A stretch of 64,000 bases of DNA from Psammoneis japonica (lineage: Eukaryota), in NCBI GenBank assembly GCA_008632985.1, contig QPGO01000015.1, positions 373,998 through 437,997 on the forward strand, written 5' to 3'. Numbering within the stretch: the stretch's first letter is position 1; each line of letters starts with the position of its first letter. The translations under genes and the position numbers were made by a program. Of this stretch, positions 3,001-47,528 are shown piece after piece. The notes beneath the pieces were generated by a model. It worked only from the letters and a program-made list of their open reading frames with translations, did not search any database and was not told the origin of the DNA.

Positions 3001-5450
3001 GCCTGTCTTCATGCCATTTGGCTTTGGCACAAAATGTCACAGAGACAACATGCTTTTGCAGCACTGCTGCCTTGTGTGGGAAGATGCTTTTTGTGTCACC
3101 TTTGAGGCACACACCTTGAACAACACACTGGCCTCCATCTGATGCCCTTTTGATGCACCATCATCAAATGCAGTCAAGACATTGCTCATGAGCAACTGGT
3201 GCACAAGCAAAAACTTCTCCAGTCTGGTGGAACATTTTGCCCTGCCACAATGTGGCCTGCATTGTGCAGAAACACAATGATGGGTTTGCTCTTCAAACAC
3301 ACAACCCACAAAAAAGCACAGAACACTCAGCTTGTGTGTTGGACTGGCTTCATCAACTGGCAATTTCCTGAGCTCACACATCTTGTGCTCTCCTTTTGAC
3401 AGTGCCTTTTTCTCTGGATGTTCAAGCAGAGATGGCAGCTCAACCTGCTTTTTCATGGTTGGCTGACTTGCTGGTGCTGGTTTCAATGAGACATCATTGT
3501 GACCTTGCACATTTGCAGCAGCAATGTTGGTGTGCCTTGTGCACTGTCAGGTGATGAAAACAACAGGTTGTCACAAGTTGCGCCATGTTGTGGAGTTCAT
3601 GAGACCAGCTTGTTTCTGAAAAAAATTGTGTGAATGGGGAGTTGTGCAAATTCCCTGTTGAATTGCTCTTTGGATCACATGTGGCCAACTGTGCCAAAGT
3701 TTCTCCAACTCCATTTGCACACATGATCATGAATGCATGCACCACATGCCACTCTTGTGCAACATCATGATTGCATTGATGGCCTGTCAATGCACACACA
3801 CCACATGCACAGATGCTCACACTGCTGCAGCTCTTGACAGTGATGGCAGCATGCTTTCTTCATGTCCCAGCTGTCTTCTTTCCAGCTGCAATGCCTTGAC
3901 AGATTGATCTGGTTTCAGATCATTGTGTGCTGGATTGACCCCCATCTTTGGAGCTTCTCACACTGGCCAGCCAAAAAAAGCCATGCCACATTTTCCAGTT
4001 TGGCAACTCCACCATCTCACTTGTGCACAATCATTTGGTGTGCATGAAGTTGGCGACCTGTGGCAAGGCATCACCACAATCAAGCATCTCCCAGTGTTCA
4101 TCTCCATCTGATTTTTTGCTGTGATTGTGAGCCCCATTTCTGGAAACAGCCTGTGAAGATGTGAGCACCACCATGGGTGGGAGGAATCCAGCTCCACTGG
4201 GAGCCAGGGTGGCATTTGGTTCTTTTGTTTGCACTGGAGAGATTGGCGCTGTCACCTTTCTGTCTGCAACAGCTCTTTCTTCTTTCAACAATTGCAGAGC
4301 ATCTTGCCATAAAAAATGGCAGTGCTCAACTCCGCATTTGCCACCATGACAAGTGACAACACACCCAGCAGCATTGCAACAGCCCCCCACTTGCACCATT
4401 TTGGACCACATGAGAAAGTCAATGAAGTCAATGTCATGTGCACCTCTGATTGGCAAGAAAGACATTGAAAGCCTCTTCCATTGAGCGCCCACCCAAGATG
4501 CTGGTGTTGATCTTGCCAGCAACATGACTCAGAGCACTTGCAACAGAGCATTTGCAGAGATTGCCAAATCTTCCTTGGCATGCAATTTTCAGGCCTGGAC
4601 AGGCTCTTGTCTCCATTGCCCACAGTTTGCAGCCATCAAAGCTGTTGATTGTGGGCTGTTCAAAGCAGCAAAATTGCCTTGGTCAGCAACAGAGAGTCTT
4701 TTTGCAAAACAATCTCTGGGTGGGTTCTTTGTGCCATTGTTGACAGCTGGCTGATGCCAGCAATGGCACTTGTGTCATGGGAGCCCTGCAGCAGGGGAGA
4801 CATGCAACCCAAAAGTGCTCACTCTGCAAAAGCTGCACAAGCTCAGGCTCGCTCCACTGAGTGTGTGTCTTGACATGACTGTGTGTCTCAACTGTGGGTG
4901 ACTCGTGTCATGAGCATTGCAGACTCATCTGGCTCCTGAGGACATGTCTGGTGAGCAAAAGCTTCTGCTCATAGAAGACAACATTTGTGCATGTGTGTGA
5001 AGAGAGAGCACATTTCACAGGATGAGTCTTTTCATGACAACACATGTGCCAGCCCAGGTGAGCAGCTCTCACAGCTGTCAACAAGAACAGCAAAGTTTGC
5101 AGCTGCTCAATGCCCCTTTCCCTGCTTTTGTGGCACATGAAAAAGGAGCAGGGGGTGAGCTGGGTTGTGAACAGGAGATGAAGTGCCTTGGGTTGCTCAG
5201 TCATCTCCAAGGTGAGCGAGCCAAGGATCAAGGAGAACCTTCATCAAATGCAGCCAGCCGCACACCAGAGGGTGAAATGCAGAGAAATGAATGAGCCAGC
5301 TCACAAAAAGAGCAAAACAGCCAAGAACCCAGAGAGATGCTGGAGCTTGCGGCTCATTTGTTTCTTCATTGTTTCATCACTTCTCATGGAATCACAAGGG
5401 AATAGAATGGACTTGTTTCTGTGCGAGTTTTTGCGACGTCAACATGCCAT
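1..5450. other. TpA- and CpG-depleted, CA/TG-rich hypermutated block (decayed repeat/TE DNA, family not identified)
   Basis: Only about 20 TA dinucleotides in 5.4 kb by manual scan, mostly TTAA/TTAG/CTAA. CpG is rare. Overlapping Cys/His-rich ORFs contain almost no Tyr. Confidence 0.85.
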
Positions 5451-17747: not shown

Positions 17748-18341
17748 GATGAATAGTAAATCCCTTGATTCTTTAGATGGCTAGAAAAGTATCCCCAAAA
17801 CAAGTTCTGTTATATCATTCCCCACAAAACAGTAACAACAGTCGCTGTGTGCTGTGTGCGTGCGTGCTGTGTCGTTTCGAGGTTGCTTGGCATTTGTTGA
17901 ATCTTGAATGTTGAATGTGTCGTCGGTCGCGCGTCGCGCGTCGGAGTGAAGCTTGCTTGTGCGCGTTTCCGTGCACGAAATCTTTCGAGAAAGCTGTCGC
18001 TGCGCAGTGGGCAAGGATGACACATCAGTGAACATCATCAGGCCCTCCAATGCACAGGTTGGGCCCTACTCTAGCGTTAGACAACAGCTCGCTTTTTGCT
18101 GCCATAAATGATTTTTAACCATGAAGCCAGATCAATGTTTTTTCTGCTTGTGGCCTGTGCTGTGCTTGGCCGCCATCCCGATTCCCAGTGGCATCACGCG
18201 GTTTTCAGCTTGCTCGATTGTTGAGAAGCAGCACTGACGAAAATCCTTGCCAGACCAACAATTGCAGAGCTTCTTCCTCCAAGCAACTTCCTCCAAGCAA
18301 GGTCCTCATTTCTCCATCACCGCACCACCAAAACTGCAGAG

Positions 18342-19300
18342 TCAAGATCGCCTTCTTCCCCGTCCAGTGTCGCGACACTTCCAGCGAAGTCGGGTCACAT
18401 TCTCCGCATGGTCACGCAAGCCAAACCTCAAATTCAATGACTCGTGGTTTCCTGAGTCCTTGTCTGCTGTGACGCCATGCTGACAAGCATTCCTTGTTTG
18501 ACCTGACAGCATGCAGACATCCTGCTGTTCAAGCGACAAACATGCTTGCCTGCCCTGCTCCCCTTGTCTGACAGCTTCTGGCACTGTGCTTGCAGATCCA
18601 CAAATTGAAATTGTGACAATGACAATGCCAAACCCATCCTTTGTCGGATGATCAACATGAAGGGGCAAAAGATGATGCCCATTGTGCAGGCTGGGTTGCA
18701 CCGCGACGAGTTGTGGAAAACGCAGATGCTTCGCTTGTTCTGCTGGTGCCGCCGACGCCCTCAGTGTGCTGCAAAGCTGTTCAATTGCTCTCTGAGCATC
18801 TTGAAGGAGCAGATCATTTTCCTTGCATGGATGCAGAGCCACCATTGCTTTCTCATTTCTGGGCCGTTCAGCGGCTGCCATTGCCAAAGAAGCGCTGGGG
18901 GTTGTGAGACATCTGGGGAGACGATTGCACTTTTTCATCATGGCCCAGAGCACCTGGCAGAAATCCAAAGGCTTGCTCTCTTGGATCAAAGATGGACCAC
19001 TCCATGACACCATTGCATCTGAGGCTTCTTGTTGAATGGTGTCGTAAAGGTGCCGGAGCATCTGAAAATTGGAGCAACCAAGCATGGTGCGACCCAAGCC
19101 AGCAAAACAAGAATCCAGGTTTTCATTGAAATTCTCGATTCCATCCCACGTCTTGACATTAGCCCAGAGTGCATTTTTTGCAGCAGCCGCCTCAACAGTG
19201 TCTGAAGGCAGACTCCGCAGGTGTCATCCCCATGACTGCCATTGCAACTGACACTTTCACCAACGAAACACTCACTGCTGCTCTGCCATTTCCAAACAAA
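18342..19300 (-). pseudogene. Hypermutated 2OG-Fe(II) dioxygenase (AlkB-fold-like) pseudogene inside a TpA-depleted block (~18000-19850)
   Basis: LPLHVDHP (HxD), DGFGIVIVTI, LSGQTRNACQHGV (distal H), ESLNLRFG. Almost no TA or Tyr codons. Confidence 0.65.
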
Positions 19301-20056
19301 TGGAGCGTCAGCACCAAGAAATCGAGTGCCTGGGTCAAAAAGAAGTTTCAGCGCTTCATTGTGTTCATGTCACGCACAATTCAGAGCAGGCAACCATGCT
19401 TCTCGGGCAGTGCCACGAAGTCAGTTAGCTGCTAGACTGGCCAGTTAGCCAGCTCTCTCTCTCTCTAGAGCAGAGGGCCCTGCCGGCACTCTAGAGTGGA
19501 GAGCATTTAGCACAACAAGTTAGGGGAGCAGGACCCTGCTTCTGCTCCAGTTAGAAGCAGTTAGTTAGAGTAGAAGCAGCAGCCCTGGAGTCAGCATCCG
19601 CGTTGGAGTAGAAAATTTTATCGGTTTTGACAGTTTGAGTTGGTCCTCGATGGAGAGTCCTTCCAAGAACTGCACGCACCAGATTGTTCAGTCAATGCTT
19701 GGATGCCCATCATCTGTGGGTGGGAATCGTCTGGTGGAAGGATCCGCCCGCTTCTTGGGATTTGGGAAGTTGGTGTGGAGCGGCAGCAGCACAAGAGTCA
19801 AAGAGAATTAACCATTGCTGTGGTGGCATCCTTAAACTAACGAACTGGGACAAACTGGCGCCAGACAGGTAATACCCAGACACAGTAATTGTTGTTTACC
19901 AGGTTGACATCATTATTCTTGAAGGTGGCAAAGGAACTGTGATCTTGCGACTTTTGATAATTGAATCGTAGTCTACTTGAAAGAAACACAGTCCTTCTAC
20001 TTTTCATGTTTAACAAATATAATATTTCGAAGAGGCGATTCTGCATTTGTTCCTTC

Positions 20057-21515
20057 CTACTCCTGCTCAGTCCCCGACTCCTTAACCATGCCATGATCAT
20101 CGTCTGTGGTCGCTTGGTCACCCGTGACCCCAGCTGCGTCTTTCTCTGTCAGTTCTTCTCCTTCCTTGACACTCTCTTCCATGGCGTCGGCTTCTACCAC
20201 TGCATCCCCCTTCTTGCGCTTTCGCCACCTCCACGGATGAATCCACCGCCATTTTTCTCGGCCTGTCATTTCATCATTAGCATCTGGATCGTATCCTTCG
20301 ACCAACATGAGTTCATCGACCATTTCCACGTCTCGCACCTCCACCGGAGTCGAGGCGATGTCTAACTCAAGCCTAAACCGCTCCAAGTCCTCTTTGGCAC
20401 GCATGCACTGTACCAGTTGGGCTTCCAAGATGACAACTAGACGAGAAAGCGTTTGATCCTCAATATCCTCTGGTTTAGTCTTCATCACCTCTCGCCAAGA
20501 CATTTCAGCCTCGGCACATTCATTCTTGAATCGGTCGAGCGTTCGGTCATACCCCTCTTCGCAGGCCATCCAATGGGTGTATGCCGCCTTTTGCTGATCC
20601 TGCAAAGTAACACCAGCTTTGCTATCATAGTACTGCTTATATTCATACCCTTGTACACCCTCGACAACCTCGGAAGGCAAGCATTCTTCAACCATGAGGG
20701 AATCGTGTTCATCCAGTATATCTTGGCGGCTGCGGCCCGCCCAACAACAGCACGGATCAATAATACTGTGCTGTTCCATATCTCTCATCATACGAATGAG
20801 TGGAACTGCCTTGGGGGTGACGCAGGTGAGAAAGGAAGAAGCGAGAAACAGACAGGATGCAATGATGGCGTAAACACCTCCTTCGTCCAGCGAACATACG
20901 TAAACCAGGCCTTTGGGAAAGCATCCTGCACAACAAACCACAGCATGCACACACAACATGACTTGAGTATTTCGAATGTGTTAAGCAATTCACTGCACGT
21001 TCATAAACCATTCGCTTACTGTCAATGGCAAACACAGAAAATGTGCCCGCTTGGAGAAACGCTGCGAGAATCATCGAAAAGACAATAATGACGCGGCTGC
21101 ACCAAAAGCGGCAGCACAAAAACTCTGTCAGTAGCAACAAAAGGGCAGCTGCCCCAATAATCAAGGCGAGAACACCACAAGCCCGTGCCGCTCGAATGCC
21201 GGTTTGCAAGTCTTGCTTGTCGACAGCGTAGTCGGTGCATCCTAGTCCTGTAGGATTGGCGCGATACAAGCCAAGTGTAGAGAACACTTCTGTCTCGTCG
21301 TCGAGCAATTCAACTTCTTCGGGTGCTGTGGTATTCAGATCTAGATCACCCTTGACCTTTGCAAAAGCACACGACCGCAACACGAGAACAGAGAAGACGA
21401 CACCAACCAGGGCGACAGACAGAAGGATCATACGGAGAAGACGTGCCACCCAGTCGGAGCCATGATACCAAGCCTTCTTTAGGACCGCTTCTCCAGGGTC
21501 ATCGTCATACATCAT
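20057..21515 (-). CDS. Multi-pass membrane protein (claudin-like N-terminus, acidic C-tail); exons 21515-21020, 20925-20057
   Basis: About four hydrophobic helices, a GLYR motif, and a GT..CAG intron that keeps the frame (ID|RCFPKG). Confidence 0.75.
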
Positions 21516-22077
21516 GGTGGATATAACTGCAATAAAGAAAGGCAGATGATTCACCGCAAGTCAAAAGCAGTGGCCCTATGTAGTTCTCGTTCTTATCGTT
21601 TTTGTTCTTCACAAATCATCACCCTGCCCACACGCAACACCCATCCAACAACCAACAAGCTTCAAAAATCTGGATAAGCCAAATCGCGCGGGCGACATCT
21701 ATCCGTTCAGATAACGGCCGTTTGCTTGTCCTTGAGTGAGTGCGGTGCGCAAGTGCTTTGAGCTCCGACCCTGCTGGCCTCTTCTGCAGATTGACTCCGC
21801 TCTCTACGTGTCGATCGTATCGCAGGTTCCCTCTCTCTCTAGAGAGTAGCTAGCAGAGAGTAGAGCAGCTAGAGAGCTGCTCTAGAGAGAGCGAGAGCAG
21901 CTCTCTGCAGCAGCTGCGACTGTGGAGTGAGGGTGACCTCAGGAGCAGAAAGCTGAAAAACGACACTTTCTGCTCCACAAAACGGCTCCTCAACTCATGC
22001 ACTGAATTGCTCGCGTTCCCAATCAACACCACAGGCAAACTTTGCAACAGCTCTGAACAGGCAGGTGGTGCAAGAAC

Positions 22078-23367
22078 TCACACAAGAGCACAAGATGCGC
22101 GCGCACAGCCATCCCCTTGTGCTTCTTCCTCGGCAGAGGGCTCCATCACATCTGACCCGCGCTGGGCATCAGCTCCCACAGCAACAGCTCTCTCTGCAAT
22201 GTCAACACCTGGGGGGTTGCAGCCACCTTCAACAGCACCATCCTTTTTGAAGACAACAGTCTTCGTCTCAACCTTTTCTGGTCGACAGCCTCTCACAGCG
22301 ACCGCCTCATTGCTGCTTGATTCGTCAGCAGCTCGGCGCCATCCAGAGTTCTTCATGACCCAACCCTTGGTCAATCCAGCAGCTCCATCTTCGCCTTTGA
22401 TCACCAGCGTGCCACCCAGATCAAGGCTCTCGACTGTGACCCCTGACCCCTGTGCAACCAGGCTTGAACGAGCTGACACTTTGACGGCAGATGGGTTTGT
22501 GAGCTTCTTCTTGTGCTCTGTGGGAAAGGCGGAGAAGCCCGTGCTCAACACCACAGTGGCAGGACTGAGCACCGCCGTGGCACCGCTGTGTGCTTCTTCT
22601 TTGGCATCTTCAATTTTGCACCCGATGGAGCGCACAATGTTTCAAGCAGAGCAACGTTGATCGGCTTCTCTGCTCACTGCTGTGCCCGGGGCTGTCCCTT
22701 TCTCCTGGAGAGCTGCGCCGTTGGAGGCGGCATTCTTCAACGGAGAAAAGCAAAGATTTGTGGGGATGCTGGCAAAGCCCACTTTTTTAGACATCTCTCC
22801 TGTGAGAGCCATCGGGAAGCCCTGCGATCACAAAGCGACGGCAAGTCAATCAAACACAGTCAACCACTGCAGACGCGTTCCAGGTCCAGGTGGGACCTCG
22901 CACTGCTGAGCTGTGACATCGACAGTTTTTTGAATCACGTCGCATGTCGCGCGCGCACATTTCTGCGTAATTTTGGCAAAAATTTGCATCATTTTACAGT
23001 GCAATCATCGGGCGATCCATTCAACAACTTTTGATGTTTTTTCTTCTGCGCCATTCTCGAGCGTCTTAAGAATGGCGCAGGGCAGGCGCATTGTCCAAAA
23101 CTTTGAGTGCGAACAGAGACATGTGCACTGCAAACTTGGCCATTTGTTTCATGTTGAAGACAAATGTGCCCATCAGCCAGAGTGCGAACTGCAGAGCTCG
23201 CACGCAGAATTCTGTGGGGCAAATGTCACAAAAAGTCCCACCCAGGACTGGAGCCCATCTGCAGCCTCAGACATTCTGCGCAAGACCTGCCTGCATCATG
23301 CACGCCAGATGCGCCGGCTTCTCAAAGACAGTCTTCACCACATCCTCACATCTCGGGTTGACAAATT
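22078..23367 (-). pseudogene. Hypermutated duplicate of the 3' part of UDP-sugar pyrophosphorylase
   Basis: Collinear with 24253-25147. Tyr->His/Cys changes (ETYSG->EAHSG, EYKK->EHKK, GYR->GCR, GYN->GCN). Confidence 0.93.
22873..23258. mobile_element. 386-bp MITE-like insertion in the intron of the duplicated USP copy
   Basis: Absent from the intact copy, which has a single ctgcag at ~25039. Here ctgcag flanks both sides. Imperfect TIRs cagacgcgttccaggtccaggtgggac / gtcccacccaggactggagcccatctg. Confidence 0.8.
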
Positions 23368-23700
23368 TGCCACTCAAGCGCCGGTTTGCAAGTCTTGCTT
23401 GTCGACAGTGCAGTCAGTGCACCCTGGTCCTCGGGGTTGGTGCGACACCAAGCCAAGTGCAGAGAACACTTCTGTCTCGTCGTTGAGCAACTCAACTTCT
23501 TCGGGTGCTGTGGCGCTCAGATCTAGATCGCCCTTGACCTTTGCAAAAGCACACGACCGCAACACGAGAACAGAGAAGACCACACCAACCAGGGCAACAG
23601 ACAGAAGGATCACACGGAGAAGACGCGACACCCAGTCGGAGCCATGACGCCAAGCCTTCTTTGGGGCCGCTTCTCCAGGGTCATCACCGCACATCATGGT
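23368..23700 (-). pseudogene. Hypermutated duplicate of the 5' part of the membrane-protein gene
   Basis: MMCGDDPGEAAPKKAWRHG versus MMYDDDPGEAVLKKAWYHG. Truncated at the duplication junction. Confidence 0.92.
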
Positions 23701-24009
23701 GGACGCAACTGCAACAAAGAAGGGCAGATGATTCACCGCAAGTCAAAAGCAGTGGCCCCAGTTCTCGTTCTTGTTGTTTTTGTTCTTCACAAATCATCAC
23801 CCTGCCCACACACAACACCCATCCAACAACCAACAAGCTTCAAAAATCTGGACAAGCCAAATCGCGCGGGCGACATCTATCCGTTCAGATAACGGCCGTT
23901 TGCTTGTCCTTGAGTGAGTACGGTACGTAAGTGCTTTGAGCTCCGACCCTGCTGGCCTCTTCTGCAGATTGATTCCGCTCTCTGCGTATCGATCGTATCG
24001 TAGGTTCCC

Positions 24010-24125
24010 TCTCTCTCTAGAGAGTAGCTAGTAGAGAGTAGAGTAGCTAGAGAGCTACTCTAGAGAGAGCGAGAGTAGCTCTCTACAGTAGCTACGACTG
24101 TAGAGGGTAACCTTAGGAGTAGAGA
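24010..24125. repeat. CTAG/AGAG-rich low-complexity patch (mutated twin at ~21830-21925)
   Basis: ctctagagagtagctagtagagagtagagtagctagagagctactctag. Confidence 0.75.
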
Positions 24126-24252
24126 AGCTGAAAAACGACACTTTCTACTTCACAAAACGGTTCCTTAACTCATACACCGAATTACTCACGTTCCCAATCA
24201 ACACTACAGGTAAACTTTACAACGGCTCCGAACAGGCAGGTGATGTAAGAAC

Positions 24253-26796
24253 TCACATAAGAACACAAGATGCGCATGTACAGTCATTCCCTTGTGCTTC
24301 TTCCTCGGCAGAGGGCTCCGTCACATCTAACCCGCGCTGGGCATCAGTTCCCGCAGCAATAGTTCTCTCCGCAACATCAACACCTGGGGGGTTGTAGCCA
24401 CCTTCAACAGTGCCATCCTTTTTGAAGACAATAGTCTTCGTCTCAACCTTTTCTAGTCGATAGCCTCTCATAGCGATCACCTCATTACTACTTGATTCAT
24501 CAGAAACTCGGTGCCATCCAGAGTTCTTCACGACCAAATCCTTGATCAATCCAGTAGCTCCATCTTCGCCTTTAATCACCAGTGCACCATCCAGATCGAG
24601 GCTCTCGATTATGATCCCTGATCCCTGTACAACCAGGCTTGAACGAGCTGATATCTTGACGGCAGATGGGTTTGTGAATTTCTTCTTATACTCTGCGGGA
24701 AAGGCACAGAAGTCCGCGTTCAACACAATGGCAGGACCGAGTACCGCCGTGATACCGCTGTACGTTTCTTCTTTGGCATCTTCAATTTTACATCCGATGG
24801 AACGCATAATGTTTCGAACAGAGCAATATTGATCGGCTTCTCCACTCATTGCTGTGCCCGGGGCTGTCCCTTTCTCCTGGAGAGCTACACCGTCGGAGGT
24901 GGCATTCTTCACCGGAGAAAAGCAAAGATTTGCGGGGATGCTGGTAAAGCCCACTTTTTTAGACATCTCTCCTGTGAGAACCGTCGGGAAGTCCTACGAT
25001 CACAAAGCGACGGCAAGTCAATCAAACGTAATCAATCACTGCAGTCTCAGACATTCTGCACAAGACCTACCTGCATCATGCATTCCAGACGCGTCGGCTT
25101 CTTAAAGACAGTCTTCGCCACATCCTTATATTTCGGATTAACAAATTCCGGCATGACTCCCTTGGTACGTTCTAGAGTATCCGCGTATGGCTTTAACTTG
25201 AACAAAAGTTGGTTGATATTACCAGGAAAAGGAGAAAAACCCGATTCATCGTTTACATCTCCGTCCGGATAACCTGACGATCGTAGAAGAGGGTCTAGCT
25301 GATTGTACTCCACGTTCAGCGTCCTATTCAAACACAGAAAAAAACGAGTGAGTTGAGAAAGGCTCCAGACTGTAAGGCGGGAGTGCTCTGGGCTAGCCAA
25401 AATCGTCGCTGCTCTGGAAGTTTGATTCTCGAATCATTGGTGGTCGTGCCACTCTCTCATATGTCTCTATCTACTTTTTGGTGTTTGGTATATCATCATT
25501 GCAACGGTGAACAATCAACATATGCTACATTCTGCCTGCTCATACGTACCTTGTTTCCTGGGTTTTCTCATTTTCGAGCTTGGCGATGCCACCAATTGCC
25601 TGCTTTGCTTTCCGCGGCACGGCCACTGAGTTCATGACAAGGTCAAGCTTTTTTGAAACGCCAATGGCCAGTGGAAGAGTGTGAAACGCAAGTCCATTTG
25701 TGTCCTGGAAGAAAATCATCCACTGGATTCCGTTCTTCAACCACGTCTTTGCTACTTGGTGTGAATGCAACAATGAGTGGATATCTCCATGACCATGAGG
25801 TTTAGCCAACAGTTTGTATCGCGAAGTGGGATCAAGCGCAAGTCTGGCGTCATTATCTTCCAATGCTGGCACACCTTCTCCCTGAATCACAATGGTTACT
25901 TGACTCTTGTCCATTCCAAAATAGTTGTTTTCGGAGAGTAACTTGACCGTTCCGGCGTTCGTGTCACCTGATGTCATGATGCATAGCGGCAACCTGGCTC
26001 CTTTAGCGGCGTACCTATTTTGCAACGCCAAGATGTACTCGATATAGAACTGAAGATACAAAGTCTCTGTTGCCATTTCAGTCGGCAGTCCAATCTTGAT
26101 ATCACTATACCCGAGACGCTCTCCCAGTCCACCCGCTACAAGAACAAACCCGACACTTCCTAGATCTTTCATGCCCAGACTCTCCACAGCGTCGAATTCC
26201 TTGGACCCTAGCACAAAGGTTTGTCCGGAAGGAACACTAGGTTTCCATCCATCCAATGGATTAACGCCCATTTTACTTTTCTCGAGCAAGTCCCTCGCAT
26301 TCTGAATGTATCCTGCGAGTCCTCCTGCAGTGTAAGCCTGATCCATAGATTCGAGCTGTTCGACAAATTTTCGTTTGAGATTGTTGCTAGCTTCAGCAGA
26401 TGGACTGGATGTAGCTGATGGTTTGGACCAGTGCTCGAACAAATGAGTTTGGTTCAGGTCCGGAGAACACAACGATTTTACCAACTGTTGTTGTGACGGC
26501 GTAAAGAGCGAGAGAGACGCCTCCAAACCTGCCGGTAGGCCTGCCTTCTTCTCAGTCTCATTCTCCTGACTTTTGTCTAAATTTTTTGTCGGTTGCTTCT
26601 CAGTAGCTTCCTTTACAACAGAAGCAGGCTTTTCAGAGTATGGCACGGAAGGAACAACATCATTTTGATTCAAATTATGATGCGGCGCACTGTCGGCAGC
26701 GACGCCTTCTGCGTGCGGCTTTTTCGTTTTCGCTTTTCCTGCACCCGGACGCCCCTTTCCCGCTCGGGATTTTCCCTTCTTACTCTTCTTGCCCAT
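24253..26796 (-). CDS. USP: UDP-sugar pyrophosphorylase; exons 26796-25550, 25323-25071, 24993-24253
   Basis: FVLVAGGLGERLG, KPHGHGDIH, FFQDTNGL, NVEYNQLDPLL, FPGNINQL, EFVNPKYKD, RLECMMQ|DFP. GT-AG introns keep the frame. Confidence 0.93.
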
Positions 26797-32329: not shown

Positions 32330-35300
32330 CTTGCATTCAAAAATAAACACCACAAAAAACCTCATTCAAAACAAAACCCAAAGTCTAATTTTAAGTGCTG
32401 CTGCGCTTCCACCCTGCAACTCCAGCAACAAGCTGACCCACACTCCCAGCACACTGGGTGCGGCAGGAGCACACAACAATTGGCCAAGATCGGCATCACC
32501 CTCGGGTGATGCTGCGCCGAAGTAGCTTGCGATGGTGCGCGTGCCTCTAACAGCTAGACGCCGGGCCTCTCAGACACTCGACTCAAACATTGGCTTCACC
32601 ACGGCGAGCCAGTTTCGGAGTCTGTGGGTGGAATGGGTGAGATGTTCATCTGCCGAATCAAAAAACTGTGCTCGGTCATGGGCCAAGCACTCGTCTGCCC
32701 TTGAGTAAATTTCTTTAACCTCTGCCTCTGCATCCCGTCATTGCAAAGACTTTCTCATCTCGGAATCGTGCCCATGTGCTGCATCATTGTGGGAGCCCCA
32801 CAATTCCCGCCATTGTGACCACACACAGCTGCCAATCGTTGCCGCCCAGTCTAATCTTTTGTCTTTATCGGACAAGGAACAATGCAAGCCAGAGGACACC
32901 AAGTGTGACGTTTGTGCCTTGTTCCACAAAGAAGCAAAATGCCCACTGAAAATGTGATGCCAACCAATGTCGTCTTGAGATCGAAACACCTCTGTGACGC
33001 TGTGGTGAACGTGAGTAGAACAAAGCAATTCCTCATGGAACCAACCTTCCAAGGCACACAACAACAGGTCTCATGTGGACAGGGACGTGTGCATGTCGTC
33101 GCATTTCTTCCGCAATCCTTGGAGAAACGTGCGCCGCCACGATTCATTGTGAGCACAATGCAGAATGTGGTCCCTGTCTTCAAGGGGGTGTTGGCAATGC
33201 TTGCAGCAGTCGGGGCGTGTGGGATCATGTCTGTGGACAATCTTGTTTGCCGGTGGCAAATCTTGGGCCAATTTCACGGTGCTCACCTTTTGTCAGACAT
33301 TGCAAGACATCAGTTTGGAATGCACTCTCCAATCAATAGATTCGCACACTGAGTCAGACCACCCGCACTTCTCCTTCATACATTGCATCAAGGCGGGGCT
33401 GGAAGCTTCACAACAGAGAACTGATTTAAACTTCAAGTTCACCGATGCCGACCGGACGTTCAGCAATGCAGAGCAATGGGGCATGCGGGGGGCCATCAAG
33501 GCATCTCTAGTGTGTTGACCCTGAAACAAACCTGCCAGTTTGTCAGCTCTGACATTCAATTTTGCTGGAAACGGGAGGGACTCGAATGGAGTGTTGTCAT
33601 CCTGATGGCTTTTAATCCACTTCATGTTGACGACGTTGCTTGCAGAGTGTCCGTCATGTTGGGCCTCCAAACTTGTTAATGAAACAAAGATCTCATGGAT
33701 GACATCCCAGTCCGGTGCCAACGTGTTGGTGACATGGTTCCAAAAATGAAAATCTTGTTGTCGCTGTGAGTCATCTACGTCCAATGGAAGCAGTGGGGAA
33801 GAATGAAAGTTGGCAACGTTGCAGCACCAGAGAGGAATTGTCACAACAGGCAGCCACGCCGTGAGAGAAATGGCTGTTGCAAAATTCCAGCACTCGAATG
33901 AGAAAATGCAGAACTGACAAGAAGCCGCGTGCTTCTGCTCGATGCAAGGACAGTCGGAATCCAAAGACCGGTCCAGCACAATCTACAAGAATCACTCCAT
34001 CAACCACCAGCGTCCAGCCAAAGGTGCAATTAAAATGCAACACGGAACCATCACTTCCCACCTCTGCCCGGAAGCGCCAAAGGGAATCCGCCATTTCAAA
34101 TGCCAACACATGCATGGCAAGGTCACTGAACAGGGCAGACTCCCACAGCGACAGAGACCGCAGCCATTCGCAGAAGTCCCAGAGGACAGGAATTGTTGGA
34201 GGCATCTTCACTGGGGACACAGTGGAGCACACCCGCCATCTACCGTCTAGAGTTGTGTCCACCACAACAGGTGATGCCAAAGGAGATGGGTCCAGAACCG
34301 TTTCTAACTGCTGCAGGGTTTCAGCGCAAGCATCCTTGACTGGAAACACTTGACAACCCGCATCAGATTGGACATGCAAAAACTCTTTGGAGGGCTCATA
34401 GCAGGCAGGGTGAAGCACACGCATCTTGGAGGCAGGGACGGTCCATTGACCTAAAGGGGTTCATAGGATGGAAGCACCTTTGTTGCACAAAAGAGCCACA
34501 GCTTGGCTCCATTGTTTCCAGGTGCGAGGTGACGGGCGTGCCTGTTCGACTGGGTTGAGTGACGACATGCTACTCACAAGGGAAGTTTGCCCTTCCAACT
34601 TGAATTCATCCAAATGTCTGCCGTCAGGAAGAGCAACGTCCGAGACAGCAAGCACTCGTGGGAACAGCCTGCAATGGTTCACCCACCTTGTCTCTTTTTC
34701 AGAGAAAAGCTTGGACTCCAGTGCCGCGTCCACAATGTGTTGATCATTCTCTCGTTGTGCAGGAAGGATGCCAGTGAAATCCAAATCGAATTGTGAGTCA
34801 ATGCGAGCAAGAAAGGATCTCATTGACACAAACCATTTGGACTCGGAGTGTGGGAGTCTAGTGTGCACATCTTTCAGAAAACTGGACCCTGTTCCAAGCT
34901 GGAACTGCATCCATGCAACTGCAATGCGGGACAAGGCATGAGGTTGACCAGTGCCTCGCCAGTGTTGAAGGAACTGCAAACATTGAGCGACACCCTGCTC
35001 CACGTCAAGAGAATGGAATCCTCCACCTCCTGAGGTGTGCGGGCCGTACAAAACGTCCCGCTTGGTGTTTCGGTTGTAACCGCACTTTGCAAATGTAGTT
35101 TGCATGGCCTTTCGTTGAATCTCAAGTGATTCCTTTGGTTGGAAATGGGCACTTGGAAGGACACAAGCAGTGGAGGCCAGGCAGCAAGCAAAGCAGTGAG
35201 TCCATGCCTCGTGACGGTCCAATGGGCACGACATAAGAAACAGAGAAATGTCGTCACTTTTCGGTTTTAGTGCCTTGTGCTGAGTCTTCTGAGTGCCTGC

Positions 35301-36870
35301 AGGAGATTTGTAATGACCCAACGTCTTGTGGGAGGAGCATGCTGAAAGTTGTGTGCTGGATCGTTTGGTGGATCTATCAGCAGAGTGCATTTCGACATCA
35401 ATCTCATCATTGTGCGCCCGAAGGTGTGGCTCGCCATCTTCAGCAAAAAGCCATTCAATGGCGTGAAACGAGCACTTTGGAAGCTCAAGCTTGTGTCCTG
35501 CCACGTCCAGGAGGTCGCACCACAACTGATTGTCTTGCTGCATTCAAGGGACCAGGTCCAGCGCATCTGGTTGGGGATCAGCACAGAAGGCATTGACTTG
35601 ATTTGAAGTGTCATCAACATGCCCTCTGGTGCACATCTGCATTGAGACTTTCTGGTCAGGAGTTTCAAAGCAGGCTCCGTGAGCTTGACCATCAAATGAC
35701 CAAAACAGGCTGTTGCAAATCTGATTCCAACAGAAGGGTGAATTTCCGCTGCCCTGACCAGTGCCGTAAATGGGGAGCTCATCCGAGTGGGAGCAAGATG
35801 ATGATGAGAGGCCAAGAGCTGTCTTCAACCAGCATCTTGTGTCATGCAAAGCAGCGTTTGTCGTCTGTGTTGCTGATTTGGGCATGCCATTGCTGCGGCT
35901 TTCAAGTGCTGTTAAGGCAGGAATGTTGCGATCGCAGCATGAGGCACAATCGCCATCACTGTGAACAGCAGTTTTCCGGGAGACTCCACTGATCTCAAGC
36001 ACAAGTTCCTCGAGGTGCACCGGAGCATGGGCATTCAAAAAGGGGCGTGTCCCGTAGACACCTGGATTGTGCAGATGACGGTGTTCCATGTTCTGTGCCA
36101 AGACTCTCCATTTCACACTGGGTGTCAGTTGGAAATCTGCCTCACAGATGTGGATGACTCGGAGACGATGGATCTTGTTGTCACCCGGCTCTTTGAAAAT
36201 CATTGCATTGACGATGTCCTTCCACCTGTCGAACGAGCATCCCCAATGCAGGGCACAGTTGAGCAAGTTCAAACAGATCCGAATTGGCCGTTGCTGAACT
36301 TTGTTCAAATGCTGACACTCAGGCGTGGGATCACCTTCGGGAGCAGTGGAGTCTGAATGAGAATGAGATGCATGCATTGCTTTCCAGTGTCCCAAATGAA
36401 GGCCTGAGAACACAGAAGTAGATGCAGTTTCCTTCCACACCTTGAGTTTTCCCTTGAGATCAGATTCAGTCAGGAAGTTTGACACAGATGCTGGGGAACG
36501 TCTTTGGAGATGTTGGATGAAGAGAGCAGCAGTGCTGTTGAGAGAGGATGCATCATGCTCTCCATCTAAGACAAGGTCGGCCACAACCGTGTCACCTTCA
36601 CATCCAAGATCCACAGAAAGGGGGGGAACTGCAGGAGGTGTGCCATGTGCTTGACCAAAATGTCTCTGATTCCGAGAACACAATGCTGCAGAAACGTCAA
36701 CTGGGGCATCTGTCGTGATCCAATCTTCGCACTCTTTTGGATTGGCAGCCGGGTTGCAAAACCTTGTTCAAATGCAACGGCAATTTTAGGACAAATGCCG
36801 GGATGACCCCCCTTGAGATGCCGGTGGACAGATGGGGCCTGCGGCAGACCAATGAGAGACAGTGGTCTGT
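32330..36870 (-). mobile_element. Degenerate non-LTR retrotransposon (LINE with RT, RNase H and C-terminal Zn knuckle; possibly Ambal-like), 5'-truncated
   Basis: RNQRHFGQA, SGLHLGHWKA, KEPG..IHRLRVIH, DCASCCDR, YGTGQGSGNSP, GHVDD. RNase H motifs SDGS/HRAEA/CDN/WIKSHQD/NVRADKLA, then EDRDHILHC. Confidence 0.9.
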
Positions 36871-38732
36871 GCCTCCCCCCTGCGCGAGTGGGGGGGGGGG
36901 TGTTTTTGCAATCTGCTGCTTCAACGACATGCTCTGCATCGCAGAAGCAGTGCACGAGCCTGCAAGCACCCTTTGAGCCACAGCAAGCTTGCTCTTTTTC
37001 TTCATCAACATTGCACTGCACGTTTGTGAGATGAAAGAGCAAGTTTTGCTTGCAGCTCGCCTTCTGTCCCTCCACATTGATCGCACCCGATTCACACTGT
37101 GGTGATCTTGACTCACGGGAGCACCGCTGGCCACTCTGCTTCTGCGACGAGCGCTCCCATGCTCACAGCCGGCACTTCGACCATCTTGGTGAAGTGCGGC
37201 TGCAGTCTTCTTTCTGCCCTTGCAGAGACTCCTTCCTTCTGGAGTGACCAGTTGTTCTGGCCATCACGGTGGTCTCCCGTCCCCACATGGTCGTCACAAC
37301 TCTCAAAACAGCGTGGTGGTTTGCGTTTGGACTCAAAAGCTGATGACATTGCCATCACCTCAGGCCTCTTGGCCACCATCAATCGCGGTCCCCGCGCAAT
37401 GGTTGGCAGCCCCTGCACTTGGCCCTGGGCACGTCCCTTGCATCTGGAAAATGTCATGGGCTCTTGTTCAGAACTTGTTTTGCTCTTGTTGAGAATCCTG
37501 TGTTCTTGACAAGTGCTCATTGATTGTGCATGAATCGATTTTAACAATTGTTTCAACATGCCAAGTGGGATTTAATGCTTGATGAAAATGACTCCAATTC
37601 TTTGTTCAATCTTGACAAGATCATGACCACAATGATTTTAAAATTGTTCAGCTCACGTTCACAATTAATGCAACCTTCCAAGTGGGAAACAATTGTCAAC
37701 AAAACTTCTTGACAAGGGTGCAATTGCAACTGCTTTGCAACATTGTTCATTTCTGACAACTGCAACATTCATTCATTGCATTAAGATGCTCGTACATTGG
37801 CTGTGTGTTTCTTGCAATGTGATTGTGCCAGCTGTGTTTTGTCATTTCTGCAGTGAACGGATTTTTGCTTCCTGTTTCCTGCTCTTCCCTCCTTGGCTTT
37901 TTCCTGTCTCCTGCTGGTTCTCCTGTGCCACAGTGATGGCACGATGCTTTTGCTCATTTCGCTGACCCTTGCATCCGCTCTTGCTTGCCATGCACAAAAT
38001 CCAGTCATTCATTCTGTGTCGTGACCTTGTCTCTTTTGCTCGTCATGCCAGATTGCCAAAGCTTTACCTGCAAAGAAGAGAAAAGAGCTTGCAACAGATC
38101 AGAGCATTGCACATGCTTTGTTTTTGAGTGGGCTTGTCTTGACAAAAACAGCGCTTCTGCTCACCTTTGCACACGACCAAGTCTCTTTTGTGTTTTGCAC
38201 CAGTTTGCCAAAGCATCGCCTGCAAAGAAGAGAAAAGAGCACGCAACAGATGAGAGCATTGCATTTGCATTGTTTCAAATGTGCTTTGCTCACCTTTGTG
38301 TGGCCCCTGCAGGGCCGTCTTCCCTTCCATCTCCCTTTGCATGTCATCAACATCATGTCTGAGTTGAAAGATTGGCCAAAGCATCAGTTGTTTGCACTGT
38401 TGCCCAAACTCCGTGCACTCACAGACTCAGTTCCTGCCTCTCTCTTGCCTTGTGTTCCGCATTGTCCTCCTCCCCCTGGTGCTCTTCTGTTGCCTTCCCT
38501 TGCTGCTGATGTCATTGTCATGATGTTTGACGAGCCTTGTGTTTTGTGTTTTGTGTCTTGTGAGGAAATGATGGTTCATGTTTTTGCAGCAATGTCGAGC
38601 CTGTCCAATTTTGTTTTAAAATTCCATGCTCACATTCCGTTTTGAAGGTTTGAATGGTTTGAAATGACTCAATGAATCATCCAGTCATTTGGGTTTTGCA
38701 TGTGTGTCGGCAGTCGGTCAATTTCTCATCTT

Positions 38733-38845
38733 TCATTGTGTCGATGTGTTCTCATTAAGATGCAAATTTTCACAGTCTTGCTGCACAGTTTTCATCATGT
38801 CAATGTGTTCTTGTTAAGATGCAAATTTTCACAGTCTTGCTGTGC
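38733..38845. repeat. ~59-bp tandem duplication
   Basis: atgtgttc..ttaagatgcaaattttcacagtcttgctg occurs twice. Confidence 0.8.
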
Positions 38846-39149
38846 AGGTTGAGCTGGCAAATCTCAAGCTCAATCTCAGCCACAAAAGCTCAGCAGCAGG
38901 AGCCCTCAGAGAAACCAAGGCTCTGCTGCCGGAGCTGTTGCAGTGCCGGCTGATGGTCCAAACCCAGCAACTGCCACCACTGCTGCTGCCTTCACAATGA
39001 CAAAGCCGCTGCCGACCATGCAAATGCAGGCCTGTGCCACTCTGTCTTCAGCCACTGCAATCTCATGCACTGGCACAAAGTTCCCATGATTGTTGTTGCA
39101 TGCCCTGGCACCCAATGGAGTCTCCTCCCACAGCCATCCCACAAGGCAA

Positions 39150-42100
39150 CTGGTCACTTGCGCTGTCACACAGATGGCTCAATGGCATCTGCACAGGTGC
39201 ATTGGCTGGACCAAAGAAGGCCCCAGTCATGTCATCAGAAAGAAAAGGGGCCACATTGTTGACACAAGACAAGCCTTTGCTCCCCAACCAAGGTTGTTGT
39301 TGGCTCTCCTGGGATGCAATGGAGTCACCCAAGGGGCCAGCAAAAGATGTCTGGGCACTGGCTCTGTCTGTAGAAAGTTCCCTTGCCTTTGCAGGTGGGG
39401 TGGTGGCTCCGTCACCAAAGCAAGCCGATCACATCAGAAAGAAAAGGGGCTGCATTGGCCCAAGACAAAAGGCTTTTCCTTCCCAACCACCGTTGTTGTT
39501 GCCTCCTCCTGGACACAACAGAGTCTCTTGTGCCCATCCTCAGACAACTGAGTGCTTGCACTGTTGTCACACAGATGACTCCCTTGTCTTTCTTGCAGGT
39601 TGAGCCACCAAAAGCCATCCTGAGAAAACAGAGTGCTTGCACTGTCACACAGATGACTCCCTTGTCTTTCTTGCAGGTTGAGCTGCCAAAAGCCATCCCA
39701 AGACAATGCAGTGCTTGCACCATCACACAGATGGTTCCCTTTTCTTTGCAGGTTGGCTGATGCCTCCCCACAGCACCTTGTGCAGCTGGGCATTTTCTTG
39801 TGTGGAGGGATCTTGCAAGGGGCTGCTGCTGCTGCCCACAACATGGCTTGCAGCTTCCAAAATCATTCATGTGCCGTGCACCCCTCGGCAAGCCTGTTTT
39901 GCTCCAGTTGGAGACACCAAGACATGCAATCAAACTCACAACCAGACAAGGCTTTTCCTTTGCAACCACTGTTGTTGTTGCCTCCTTGAGGACCCAATGG
40001 AGTCTCTTGCAACTGTCCCAAGACAACATGGAGTGCTTGCACTGTCACACAGACAGTTCCCCTGTCTTCCTTGCAGCAGGACGGTTCTTGGCTGGGCCAA
40101 ACCCAGCCATGCCAGAGAGACAAGGTGCTGCACCAACACAAGACAAGGCCTTTGCTTTCCAACCATTGTTGTTGTTGCATTCTCTGGGACCTGATCAAGT
40201 CTTCCAAGGCCACCCCATGACAACAGAACACTTGCACTGTCACACAGATTGTTTTCTTGTTTTTGCAGGTGGTGTGGCTGGGCAAAGAAACCCAGTCATG
40301 TCAGAGAGACAAAGGGCTGTGTGGACACAAGACAAGGCCTTTGCTTCCCAACCATTGTTGTTGTTGCATCCTCTGGGATCCACTGGAGTCCTCCAATGCC
40401 ATCCCAAGACAGCTGCAAACCTCCTTTGCCACCAGGCTGGCAACACCATGAGTGCACCCACCAACCTGACAACTTTTGTCAAACATCATTGGCTGTCTTC
40501 AGTGGACCCCAGGTGACACTTTAAGAGCCATGGTTGGAAGTTGCAAAGCCATCCTGGCTGAGCTGCAGCTTCTGTGTCACTTCACACACCACTGCCAGGG
40601 TGAGACTTGACTCCCAAATTCAAAAAGTGAAACAACACCATGAGTGCACCCACCCACCCAACAACTGTTGTCAAATGCCATTGAGTGTCTTCTGCAAACC
40701 CCAGGGAACACTTTTCTCAGCCATGGTTGGGAGTTGCAAAGCCACCTTGGCTCAGCTGTGGCCCATGTCACTTCACAAATGTCAGGGTGAGACTTGAGCC
40801 CCAAAGTCAAAAGTGAAACAACATCATGAATGTGCCAACGCACCAAACAACTGTTGTCAAACACCATTGGATGTCTTCTGTGGACCCAAGGTGACACTTC
40901 AAGTGCCATGGCAGGGAGTTTCAAAGCCAACCTGCCTCAGCTGCAGCCCATGTCACTTCACAAAATGTCAGGATGAGACTTGATTCCCAACTTCTGAAGT
41001 GAAACAGCACCATGTGTGCACCCACCCACCCAACAACTGTTGTCAAACACTGTTGAATGTCTGCAGTGGACCCCAGGCAACACTTCAAGAGCTGTGGTCA
41101 GGAGCTTCAAAGCTGCTGTGGTGCAACTCTGGCTCTGTGTCACTTCACAATTTCAGGGCGAGACTTGATCCCCAATTTCTGAAGTGAAACAACATCATGA
41201 ACATGCCAACACACCAAACAACTGTTGTCAAACACCATTGAGTGTCTTCTGCAGACCCCAGGGAACACTTTTCTCAGCCATGGTTGGGAGTTGCAAAGCC
41301 ACCCTGGCTCAGCTGTGGCCCATGTCACTTCACATGAGACTTGAACCCCAACTTCTGAATTGAAACAACATCATGAATGTGCCAGCGCACCAAACAACTG
41401 TTGTCAAACACCATTGAATGTCTTCTGTGGACCCAAGGTGACACTTTGAGTGCCATGGCAGGGAGTTTCAAAGCCAACCTGCCTTAGCTGCAGCCCATGT
41501 CACTTCACAAAATGTCAGGGTGAGACTTGAACCCCAACTTGTGAATTGAAACAACACCATGAGTGCACCCACCCACCCAACAACTGTTGTTCAAACATCA
41601 TTGACTGTCTTTGGCAGACCCAAGGCAAACCTCAAAGAGCCATGTTTGGGAGTTGCATGGCCCAAGTGCCACACCGACACAAGACAAGGCCTTTGCTTCC
41701 CAGCCATGGTTGGTGTTGCATTCTCTGGGACCCGATCAAGTCATCCAAGGCCGCCCCATGACAACAGAGCATTTGCACTGTCACACACATGGCTTTCTTG
41801 TTTTTGCAGGTGGTGCGGCTGGGCAAAGAAACCAGTCATGTCAGAGAGACAAAGGGCTGCATGGACACAAGACAAAGCCTTTGCTCCCCAACCGTTGTTG
41901 TTGTTGCATCCTCTGGGATCCACTGGAGTCCTCCAATGCCATCCCAAGACAGCTGCAAACCTCTTTTGCCACATCTGTGGGCACAGTGCTTTCACACCTT
42001 GTGCAGCTGGGCATCTTCTTGTGTGGAGGAATCATGCAAGGGGATGCTGCTGCTGCCCAAGACATGGCTTGCAGCTTCCCAAATCAAGATTGCAAAGACA
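39150..42100. repeat. Complex repeat containing a ~186-bp tandem array (~40440-41660, ~6.5 units) flanked by ~300-bp direct repeats (~40133-40430 and ~41677-41968)
   Basis: aa(g/t)tgaaaca anchors at ~40625, 40811, 40997, 41182, 41358, 41544. Recurrent cacaagacaaggcctttgcttccca and tgcactgtcacacagat modules. Confidence 0.9.
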
Positions 42101-47000: not shown

Positions 47001-47420
47001 CCTTGTTCCCTTTGCCATTGACAATCTCAGCACCCCTGGGTGCTTTGCTCACTGCCTGCTCTTTGGTGCCAACCAAGACCATCCACTCCTCCCCTCCCTT
47101 CCTCCACTGCCCTGGAATTCAGAATCCTCCTTCCAACACCCAGCTGCATGTGTTGCCTGTGCCAATGCCCAACTCTCCCCATCTGGCCTCATTCCTGCTG
47201 CCACAGCTTCCTGGACTGCACCACGCAACTGCTCCCACCCAATGGGGCCTCCAGAGCCTCAGCCTTGTTGTTGCCAAGTCCCTTGCTGATCAACTTCTTT
47301 GCTGCTTCACCAAATCACATGCCAAACTTGCTGCTCCTGGTCCCAGAACCCTCCCATTCCCTGCCTGCATGACACAATTTCATCCCACCATGCCATCTGC
47401 ACCTCACACCACACCATTCA
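44100..47420 (+). mobile_element. Degenerate CRE-like non-LTR retrotransposon (RT plus restriction-like endonuclease)
   Basis: IGVKGGLD, EGFCQ, ACLDI (YxDD position), GGLG, C..C...DPCGNHAFFC...KTPLSNATCD (CCHC), CPANV (RPAD-like), AVDITV, PFAID. Confidence 0.8.
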
Positions 47421-47451
47421 TTGACGTTGCACATGAACTTCTCATGTGCAT

Positions 47452-47528
47452 GTGCCAGGCAGTTACCCCAACCAACAAGCAATTGCTCAAGTGCCAGGCA
47501 GTTGCCCCAACCAACAAGCAATTGCTCA
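47452..47528. repeat. 39-bp tandem duplication at the 3' end of the CRE-like element
   Basis: gtgccaggcagtt(a/g)ccccaaccaacaagcaattgctca occurs twice. Confidence 0.85.

Follow-up and report, generated by a model that had tools for sequence, protein, structure and literature searches.

The subject of this study is a 64-kb stretch of the genome of the diatom Psammoneis japonica (GenBank assembly GCA_008632985.1, contig QPGO01000015.1, positions 373,998 to 437,997 of the forward strand; hereafter the window, to which the analysis was confined), in which the dinucleotide TA has been erased from sharply bounded blocks. Long intron-poor reading frames in the window encode an SMUBP-2-type helicase, a UDP-sugar pyrophosphorylase (USP), a lipase, a GST and an FKBP. 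For the helicase, the USP and a long interspersed nuclear element (LINE), the relatives with a name that matched best were from diatoms (Amphora, Nitzschia, Cylindrotheca, Mayamaea, Seminavis, Fragilaria and Skeletonema), with an identity never above 59-67%. The GC content of the window is ~49% and its dinucleotide map separated two states. In the background state the observed/expected ratio (o/e) was ~0.55 for TA and ~1.0 for CpG, and in the block state TA o/e was 0-0.15, with CpG reduced too, but later than TA. The TA-erased blocks total about half of the window. Region sets for block and background counts were picked from this map with transition zones excluded, and block ages were read from the degree of CpG loss. 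The blocks are:

1..5250: old block; TA count 0 in 2001-4000, CpG o/e 0.02-0.14 (TA and CpG maps)
18117..19425: second young block; TA-free at 18117-19044, carries an oxygenase-like pseudogene
21742..23853: young block of ~2.1 kb; TA o/e ~0.06-0.16, CpG o/e still 0.67-0.79
32750..49500: older block; TA nearly absent, CpG half to fully lost, holds a LINE pseudogene and tandem repeats
54250..62600: old block; TA o/e 0.03-0.09, CpG o/e 0-0.29

CpG o/e went from 0.67-0.79 at 22-24 kb, through ~0.5 at 33-38 kb, to 0.02-0.1 in the oldest parts, where the gain of CA and TG (~92 per kb) closely balanced the loss of TA plus CpG (~89 per kb). GC content was 0.53-0.55 in the young block and an ordinary 0.50 in the old ones. 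The end state of the process is DNA with almost no TA, no CpG and a surplus of CA and TG. A strand bias was sought across the blocks and none was found, CA against TG on the plus strand ranging from -0.26 to +0.25 per kb.

The young block at 21742-23853 lies in a tandem duplication with a period of ~2178 bp, the unit of which consists of the 5' part of a gene encoding a membrane protein (gene A), a spacer and the 3' part of the USP gene:

21186..23367: copy 1; gene A 5' part, spacer, USP 3' fragment and a miniature inverted-repeat transposable element (MITE)
23368..25147: copy 2; truncated gene A 5' fragment (mutated to 23853), spacer and the unmutated 3' part of the intact USP gene
21676..21741 (partner 23854-23919): spacer stretch unchanged in both copies; both block edges lie here
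22081..22818, minus strand: B1, hypermutated USP pseudo-exon of 246 codons with one CGA>TGA stop
24256..24990, minus strand: B2, terminal exon of the USP gene in its intact, spliced form
22066..22670: inner part of the young block, within B1, for which B2 holds the ancestral state; all 25 TA sites of copy 2 are changed in copy 1
22873..23258: MITE-like insertion of 386 bp, in copy 1 only; CTGCAG target-site duplication and imperfect terminal inverted repeats of ~18 nt

Local alignment of copy 1 (21186-22872) with copy 2 (23368-25044) covered 1675 sites with 171 differences, 164 of them transitions and 7 transversions. Up to position 21675 it was copy 2 that carried C or G where copy 1 had T or A, and from 21742 onwards it was copy 1. 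This switch of polarity along the duplicate shows that the TA-poor state forms one continuous block, 21742-23853, which runs across the copy junction. In the spacer between the edges, TA sites of the kind that is hot by the rule described below (21700 and 21712, with their partners 23878 and 23890) were retained in both copies. Duplicated sequence belonging to parts of the intact genes (21186-21712 and ~23890-25044) was likewise unmutated, and duplication alone is therefore no trigger. The young block corresponds to the redundant middle of the duplication, that is B1, the MITE and the truncated gene A fragment. As most of it is duplicated host-gene DNA, the change was not one made in transposon copies before their insertion.

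The MITE is flanked by CTGCAG at 22867-22872 and 23259-23264, and copy 2 has a single CTGCAG at 25039-25044. Its copy number in the genome is very high, with a summed contig depth of up to ~1e5 against ~58 beside it and loose contig ends at 22870/22871 and 23259, and no second copy lies within the window. It contains only three TA but 22 CpG.

The TA-free sequence was also present in an independent DNA run (X1), whose depth was ~55-61 throughout, both copies included, and whose contigs we compared with the window over 19500-26500. X1 contigs matched 21765-22143 and 22124-22707 with four other letters each, all at CpG; the young block is therefore no artefact of assembly or base calling. An X1 joint between 21906 and 24030, considered as a single-copy allele, was discounted, its side being 21 letters long and lying within a low-complexity stretch. 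This stretch, a palindromic run of CTAG and GAG in the spacer between USP and gene A, occupies 21830-21920 and 24010-24100; in its mutated copy all five CTAG survive, and most GTAG became GCAG with two GTAG kept.

Fungal repeat-induced point mutation (RIP) would leave the two copies with these same alternative letters but with the polarity reversed, and we therefore tested the direction of change with an outgroup. The proteins encoded by B1 and B2 were compared with the last 330 residues of each of the first 40 diatom USP relatives among the 120 matches listed (129 found, E<=1e-10). The outgroup agreed better with B2 at 51 of the 62 residue differences and with B1 at 7, with 4 ties. Conserved Tyr codons, TAT or TAC in B2, read CGT, CAC, CAC, TGT and TGC in B1. 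The changes outside TA were polarised likewise, as illustrated by an invariant Asp (GAT>GGT), Ile (ATC>GCC) and Thr (ACC>GCC). The composition of the TA-bearing DNA is that of the intact genes in the window. By this comparison TA is the ancestral state and CA or TG the derived one, and the TA-free copy is the derived copy.

The original prediction, made from the letters of the window alone, concerned 22066-22670 and held that RTAR sites had become RCAR, YTAY sites YTGY and RTAY sites either (R, purine; Y, pyrimidine), the mutated base being the A of TAY. In the alignment of copy 2 with copy 1 its counts proved exact: RTAR had gone to CA at 9/9 sites, YTAY to TG at 5/5, and RTAY to CA at four sites, TG at three and CG at one. 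RTAR and YTAY are one site class seen from opposite strands, and the two counts thus make 14/14 for a single statement. An exception that had been noted near 22030 (CTAC>CCAC) is real. The flank rule is a strong preference and not an absolute one, as three YTAR sites in the segment, which had gone unmentioned, were changed too (CTAA>CTGA, CTAG>CTGG and TTAA>TTGA). 'The A of TAY' and 'the T of RTA' are moreover the same base pair; the data therefore fix the changed pair, not the strand that was chemically hit, and the part of the claim that names A as the attacked base is not established.

Over the whole young block the 46 RTAR and YTAY sites offer a choice between a TAY side and a TAR side. 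The TAY side only was hit at 39 of them, the TAR side only at two and both at one, with four kept (39 vs 2, binomial p 8e-10). Both strands were hit alike, the hot base being changed at 26/30 RTAR and 14/16 YTAY sites. The 19 RTAY sites showed 14 single hits, four double hits and one kept, and the 13 YTAR sites were hit at seven and kept at six. Counted over all A and T, 131 of the 171 differences arose in the block lineage as A>G or T>C, and 27 of the other 40 were C>T at CpG.

A context spectrum built from the duplicate pair confirmed that A>G depends on both neighbours, as had been predicted, yet the weights turned out differently from a plain TAY target. At the +1 position the rate was 65/204 for C and 53/186 for T against 7/218 for A and 6/248 for G; a 3' pyrimidine was thus near-obligatory (118/131 events). 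At the -1 position T gave 72/158, compared with 21/218 for A, 18/223 for C and 20/257 for G. TAY was the hottest context (62/85, 73%, against 10/73 at TAR; Fisher 2.6e-14), with TAC (38/55) and TAT (24/30) similar. VAY (V, any base except T) changed at 18%, and 5' T therefore acts as a booster of ~4-fold, so that describing the target simply as TAY was an overstatement. The observation that most extra changes outside TA are A>G at ApY held (VAY 56/305 vs VAR 3/393, p 2.5e-18). By dinucleotide, 72/131 A>G events fell on TpA and 59/131 on other ApN, 56 of these being ApY, at rates of 46% for TpA versus ~9%. AAY was changed at 20/90 sites, CAY plus GAY at 36/215 and AAR at 1/128. A preference for G at +2 in TAY was sought and not found (G 15/19 vs T 19/22); among VAY hits there was a surplus of G at -2 (31/75), which may be confounded by CpG. 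C>T occurred at 27/178 CpG sites and at 6/641 elsewhere in the young block. With hot positions changed at 40/46 and cold ones (VAR A>G plus non-CpG C>T) at 9/1034, in this one duplicate pair, the hot-site rate is roughly 200-fold or more above that of cold sites in the same DNA. Outside the blocks, a single change of the hot type was seen at 19897, where X1 has C and the window T (GTAC>GCAC).

The same flank rule was visible in the composition of the other blocks. Surviving TA in old blocks had been described as mostly YTAR, the class with no TAY on either strand, and this was the case for 32/54 in the oldest blocks and 72/133 in all blocks, compared with 167/970 in the background; in counts of NTAN tetramers inside versus outside the blocks YTAR was enriched inside (p 9e-19). 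RTAY, which has two hot bases, accounted for 5/133 TA in blocks and 296/970 in the background. Relative to the background, the density of TAC and TAT in old blocks was 0.02-0.03, that of TAA 0.18 and that of TAG 0.08. In the young blocks the CA gain fell in the predicted flank class (per kb, RCAR +28, RCAY +10, YCAR +6, YCAY +2).

Two pseudogenes in other blocks served as independent replicates:

34464-36767, minus strand: ORF2 (second open reading frame) pseudogene of a LINE, a retrotransposon without long terminal repeats; frame of 768 codons with one internal TGA, identified by its relatives
18345-19223, minus strand: 2OG-Fe(II)-oxygenase-like pseudogene; open frame of 293 codons with 158 relatives

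The LINE ORF2 had 193 relatives, several with RVT_1 and Exo_endo_phos (E 1e-179), and Pfam itself gave no match; the LINE remnant as a whole spans 33300-37260 on the minus strand. Every Tyr codon contains a T-A-Y on its coding strand, and the rule therefore predicts Tyr to Cys, not Tyr to His. At the 18 columns where at least 70% of the first 40 relatives among the 120 matches listed (193 found) have Tyr, the block copy had Cys (TGY) at nine, His at none, Phe at three, Trp at one and Asp at one, and had kept Tyr at four. The oxygenase-like frame was compared with 55 relatives of at least 200 aa from the first 60 among 150 matches listed. Its invariant residues had changed from Y237 to C (TGC), from N178 to S (AGC), from H270 to R (CGT) and from R to H (CAC), which establishes CAY>CGY and AAY>AGY as genuine A>G changes. 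This frame seems intact only because the stops TAA and TAG have vanished from TA-free DNA; judged by these substitutions, it is a dead gene with the same mutational footprint.

CpG loss in the blocks was ~10x slower than TA loss. No rule for the 5' flank was found when sought at CpG C>T (ACG 6/44, CCG 6/46, GCG 8/35, TCG 7/53). Between the window and X1 over 21765-23812 all nine differences were at CpG and none at TA; the window had TG or CA against CG in X1 at five, and the reverse at four. Outside the block there were four differences in ~4.9 kb, none of them at a CpG of X1. CpG change in the young block is thus either ongoing or polymorphic, or partly a matter of methylated-CpG miscalls in the assembly. 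Loss of CpG is a separate process that runs more slowly; the simplest account of it is that methylated cytosine is deaminated in silenced DNA. The cited passages of PMC9998398 describe DNMT5a-dependent CpG methylation of transposons in diatoms, and decay of this kind in methylated transposons explains the slower CpG>TpG/CpA loss seen here; it cannot explain the loss of TA.

The young block ends in the spacer adjoining two intact genes that are spliced and transcribed, gene A and USP. Their structure was taken from contigs of run X2, which behave like cDNA; none of the runs listed is recorded as RNA. In the X2 contigs three stretches with CT..AC ends, or GT..AG when read on the minus strand, are missing:

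20925-21018 (94 nt), 24993-25069 (77 nt) and 25323-25548 (226 nt), minus strand: introns at X2 contig joints; the frames continue across them
21621 down to 20245, minus strand: gene A, membrane protein, spliced (X2 contigs)
25325-25070 and 24992-24141, minus strand: last exons of the USP gene (X2 contigs)

Among the X2 pieces listed none lay within 21840-23945, an absence of cover that is no evidence of silence. Further features were noted elsewhere in the window. The oldest block holds diverged direct-repeat families with a spacing of ~186-190 bp and no Pfam match at 39200-42100, and a larger repeat of ~1.35-1.5 kb lies within the same interval. At 45000-47000 the plus strand has an excess of C over G (GC skew -0.34 to -0.47; 397 C vs 143 G at 46001-47000), for which CA/TG asymmetry is no explanation. 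A TA-rich patch at 12001-12500, with 30 and 19 TA per 250 bp versus ~9, has low CpG and lies in otherwise ordinary DNA.

Taken together, our results point to regional, motif-bound T:A>C:G hypermutation that acted in place on diatom chromosomal DNA, and we put the probability of this statement, without any step that names a deaminase, at about 0.75. The direction, the motif, the regional limits, the action in place on non-repeat host DNA and the transposon content of the blocks are established. That the cause is a targeted, context-specific mutator of the kind recently reported from the chlorarachniophyte Bigelowiella natans is very probable. An enzyme is the most economical agent because of the three-base footprint, the ~90% saturation, the sharp edges and the ~200-fold rate. 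The original prediction likewise favoured an enzyme over GC-biased gene conversion, and this choice is well founded, as the changes are motif-bound, reach ~90% of hot sites, stop at sharp edges and go alongside GC>AT change at CpG. Gene conversion or another recombination bias would account for the net AT-to-GC change that raised the GC of the young block to 0.53-0.55; it is nonetheless highly improbable, given changes tied to a three-base motif (VAR 3/393 vs TAY 62/85), GC-to-AT change at CpG (27/178) in the same block, no donor sequence and the ordinary GC of 0.50 in old blocks. Equally improbable is an artefact in which modified bases were misread in the long-read assembly. The nine differences from X1, all at CpG and five with TG or CA in the window, could be methylated-CpG miscalls, but X1 contigs (depth ~55) show the TA-free sequence, four of the nine run the opposite way, and the Tyr to Cys pattern at the protein level agrees with real substitutions. 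At first sight the tandem duplicates are RIP-like, as nearly all of their differences are transitions, with CA or TG against TA, and RID-related DNMT4 genes occur in many diatoms according to the cited part of PMC9998398. In fungal-type RIP, C>T at CpA after duplication, CA and TG would be ancestral and TA derived. We reject it, and it has hardly any probability left, since the outgroups reverse the polarity and place the TA-bearing copy as ancestral (51 vs 7, conserved Tyr intact). The same polarity holds in two unduplicated pseudogenes (LINE and oxygenase-like), the TA-bearing DNA shares its composition with intact genes of the window, one period (21742-23853) was changed and not both copies, and RIP would additionally require T>C changes creating CpG in the same copy.

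The remaining alternatives differ from the proposed hypermutation in place mainly in the agent or its substrate. ADAR-type editing of double-stranded RNA copied back to DNA, or a hypermutated free circle integrated by homologous recombination, would also give A>G, and we consider either very unlikely. ADAR favours a 3' G and avoids a 5' G, whereas here 3' G was strongly avoided (6/248) and G at -1 (20/257) was similar to A and C. An integrated circle would have the length of one duplication period, and the block comes almost exactly to that, but the 66-bp spacer with its retained hot TA sites argues against insertion of a uniformly mutated circular copy: an unmutated gap is not expected, and the escape of two hot sites by chance has a probability of ~0.01. 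The preference for 5' U or T is itself ADAR-like (preprint Discussion, 10.64898/2026.01.13.699255). Error-prone repair synthesis in silent chromatin over repeated patches, Pol eta-like with WA>WG (W, A or T), is somewhat less remote and still improbable. A>G with 5' T belongs to the WA signature, in which 5' A and 5' T are both favoured. In our data 5' A gave no boost (AAY 20/90 vs CAY plus GAY 36/215), the 3' pyrimidine found in 118/131 events is no part of WA, and ~90% saturation of hot sites would require very many rounds of repair. Both TadA and Pol eta had been named as enzymes with suitable contexts; TadA fits at -1 and partly at +1, and Pol eta does not fit, AAY not being raised. An attack on T after a purine, best at RTA, is a serious rival, while staying unlikely: the T would be oxidised or otherwise modified, for example by a TET/JBP-type dioxygenase (to 5-hydroxymethyluracil or 5-formyluracil), or excised, and then read as C or repaired to C. 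Oxidised forms of thymine can pair wrongly with G. For A and T the evidence from sequence is symmetric, each TAY event also being an RTA event with both strands alike, and the same blocks also lose methylated CpG, the other 5-methylpyrimidine context. Against this, T attack is without positive evidence, and CpG loss, ~10x slower and without a flank rule, argues for two separate processes.

Several observations weigh against our interpretation. The sequence data fit an attack on A and an attack on T alike. Events outside TpA made up 59/131 of the A>G changes, unlike the TpA-only events of the B. natans preprint, and the process here may differ from that one or be broader. In old blocks the depletion of VAY was weak (AAT 0.77, GAT 0.72, GAC 0.85 and AAC 0.98 of background). 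The near-match of block length (2112 bp) to duplication period (2178 bp) is accounted for only by a tentative explanation of the boundaries. The origin of most block DNA is unassigned: of 115 stop-to-stop block frames of at least 110 aa, 112 had no Pfam match, and the other three were the GST gene at the edge of a block and two frames with weak matches, one to 2OG-FeII_Oxy_2 and one to MINDY. The TA-erasure signature was not found among the 120 LINE relatives listed (Tyr a normal 2.3-5.6%), nor in 80 related LINE loci in metagenome contigs (TA o/e 0.49-0.87, lowest 1-kb window 0.34). The process would thus seem not to be general among diatom LINE copies, though both searches favour intact copies (protein sets in one, scan patterns that contained Tyr in the other) and are weak evidence of absence. 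Finally, ADAT2 of amphioxus, the one DNA-editing enzyme of this type whose context has been measured, acts on A preferably in GAA and on C preferably in TCG, with a liking for hairpin loops, a context other than TAY as far as the cited passages go (PMC10354150). In our data C>T at CpG had no bias towards a 5' T.

Inside sharply bounded, putatively silent, transposon-bearing blocks, T:A has thus been converted to C:G. The pair that is hit is the one whose A precedes a pyrimidine; with the boost from a 5' T, TA is erased first and almost completely, and the flanking bases determine whether CA or TG results at each TA. Targeting may go via silent chromatin or via an aberrant transcript containing the MITE. 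The neighbouring genes could determine where the block ends, as could an aberrant transcription unit, which would possibly run from the promoter of the truncated gene A through the MITE to the USP terminator. As for the chemistry, our first choice, held tentatively and at somewhat less than even odds, is an enzyme of the deaminase fold, TadA/ADAT2-like or of another type, that converts A to inosine, which is then read as G. Here, as with these deaminases, the A is preceded by U or T: U precedes the edited A in tRNA substrates of TadA and ADAT2. The natural site of bacterial TadA is UACG, and the process here differs in that C and T at +1 are equal and G at +2 is not preferred. Some ADAT2 enzymes deaminate DNA, according to the cited part of PMC10354150. 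More speculative, and rather doubtful, is that a dedicated nuclear DNA adenine deaminase, derived from TadA/ADAT2 or from a toxin, is recruited to silenced, methylated transposon chromatin and shares its origin with that of Bigelowiella, which would make it old within the SAR group (stramenopiles, alveolates and rhizarians). The function may be genome defence, by analogy with what was proposed for B. natans.

The closest known system is described in a preprint on B. natans (Mettrop et al., bioRxiv 10.64898/2026.01.13.699255, April 2026). In mutation-accumulation lines, two regions of integrated viral DNA took 231/302 of the new mutations, and these were almost without exception A>G or T>C at TpA; TpA-poor, CpA+TpG-rich clusters were described as well, and a deaminase was proposed, with no enzyme identified (10.64898/2026.01.13.699255). 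Shared with our window are the near-exclusive A:T>G:C transitions turning TpA into CpA or TpG, regions on the kb scale in which rates exceed those elsewhere in the genome by orders of magnitude, and the TpA-poor, CpA+TpG-rich clusters, which in B. natans are enriched for transposon or viral domains and unannotated genes. There the targeted region is silent and a deaminase-based defence has been proposed. The hosts differ, a diatom (stramenopile) here and a rhizarian there, and so do the targets: giant-virus and virophage inserts in B. natans, and in the window transposon-bearing DNA with adjacent host gene fragments, as the blocks hold the MITE and the LINE but host gene fragments and an oxygenase-like gene were also hit. 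Erasure is near-complete here (TA o/e 0-0.1 vs 0.45), and the 3'-pyrimidine rule, the ApY hits outside TpA and the loss of CpG were seen here. In B. natans occurrence in real time was demonstrated, whereas our window is known from sequence comparison only. The main text of the preprint (10.64898/2026.01.13.699255) is without the words trinucleotide, tetranucleotide, flanking, CpG and diatom, and its supplementary tables may hold contexts. New relative to B. natans are therefore the flank rule, the ApY hits outside TpA, the near-complete erasure, the spread over host DNA around the MITE and the coupled decay of CpG. As in fungal RIP, motif-bound transitions ruin repeats and transposons, can spill into neighbours and skew the dinucleotides, but RIP makes TpA from CpA whereas the process here destroys TpA, and duplication alone is insufficient here, the duplicated parts of intact genes being unmutated. 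Full-text literature searches found TpA>CpA/TpG hypermutation in the B. natans preprint only; otherwise they gave fungal RIP and nothing in diatoms.

The tandem duplicate constitutes a clean before-and-after pair, which gives the N-A-Y (best T-A-Y) footprint and separates the fast TA step from the slow CpG step. Candidate enzymes can be assayed against this footprint, and the mutation table of Bigelowiella can be re-read in its light. The loss of TA removes all TAA and TAG stops and all Tyr codons, and gene finders will be misled by the long false open frames that result. If the deaminase interpretation is true, the process would be the mirror image of fungal RIP and the T-A-Y rule the footprint of the enzyme, and base-editing research would take an interest in a naturally occurring enzyme that acts on A in chromosomal DNA. 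The same kind of process in a diatom would widen the range of such hypermutation to major, genetically tractable primary producers.

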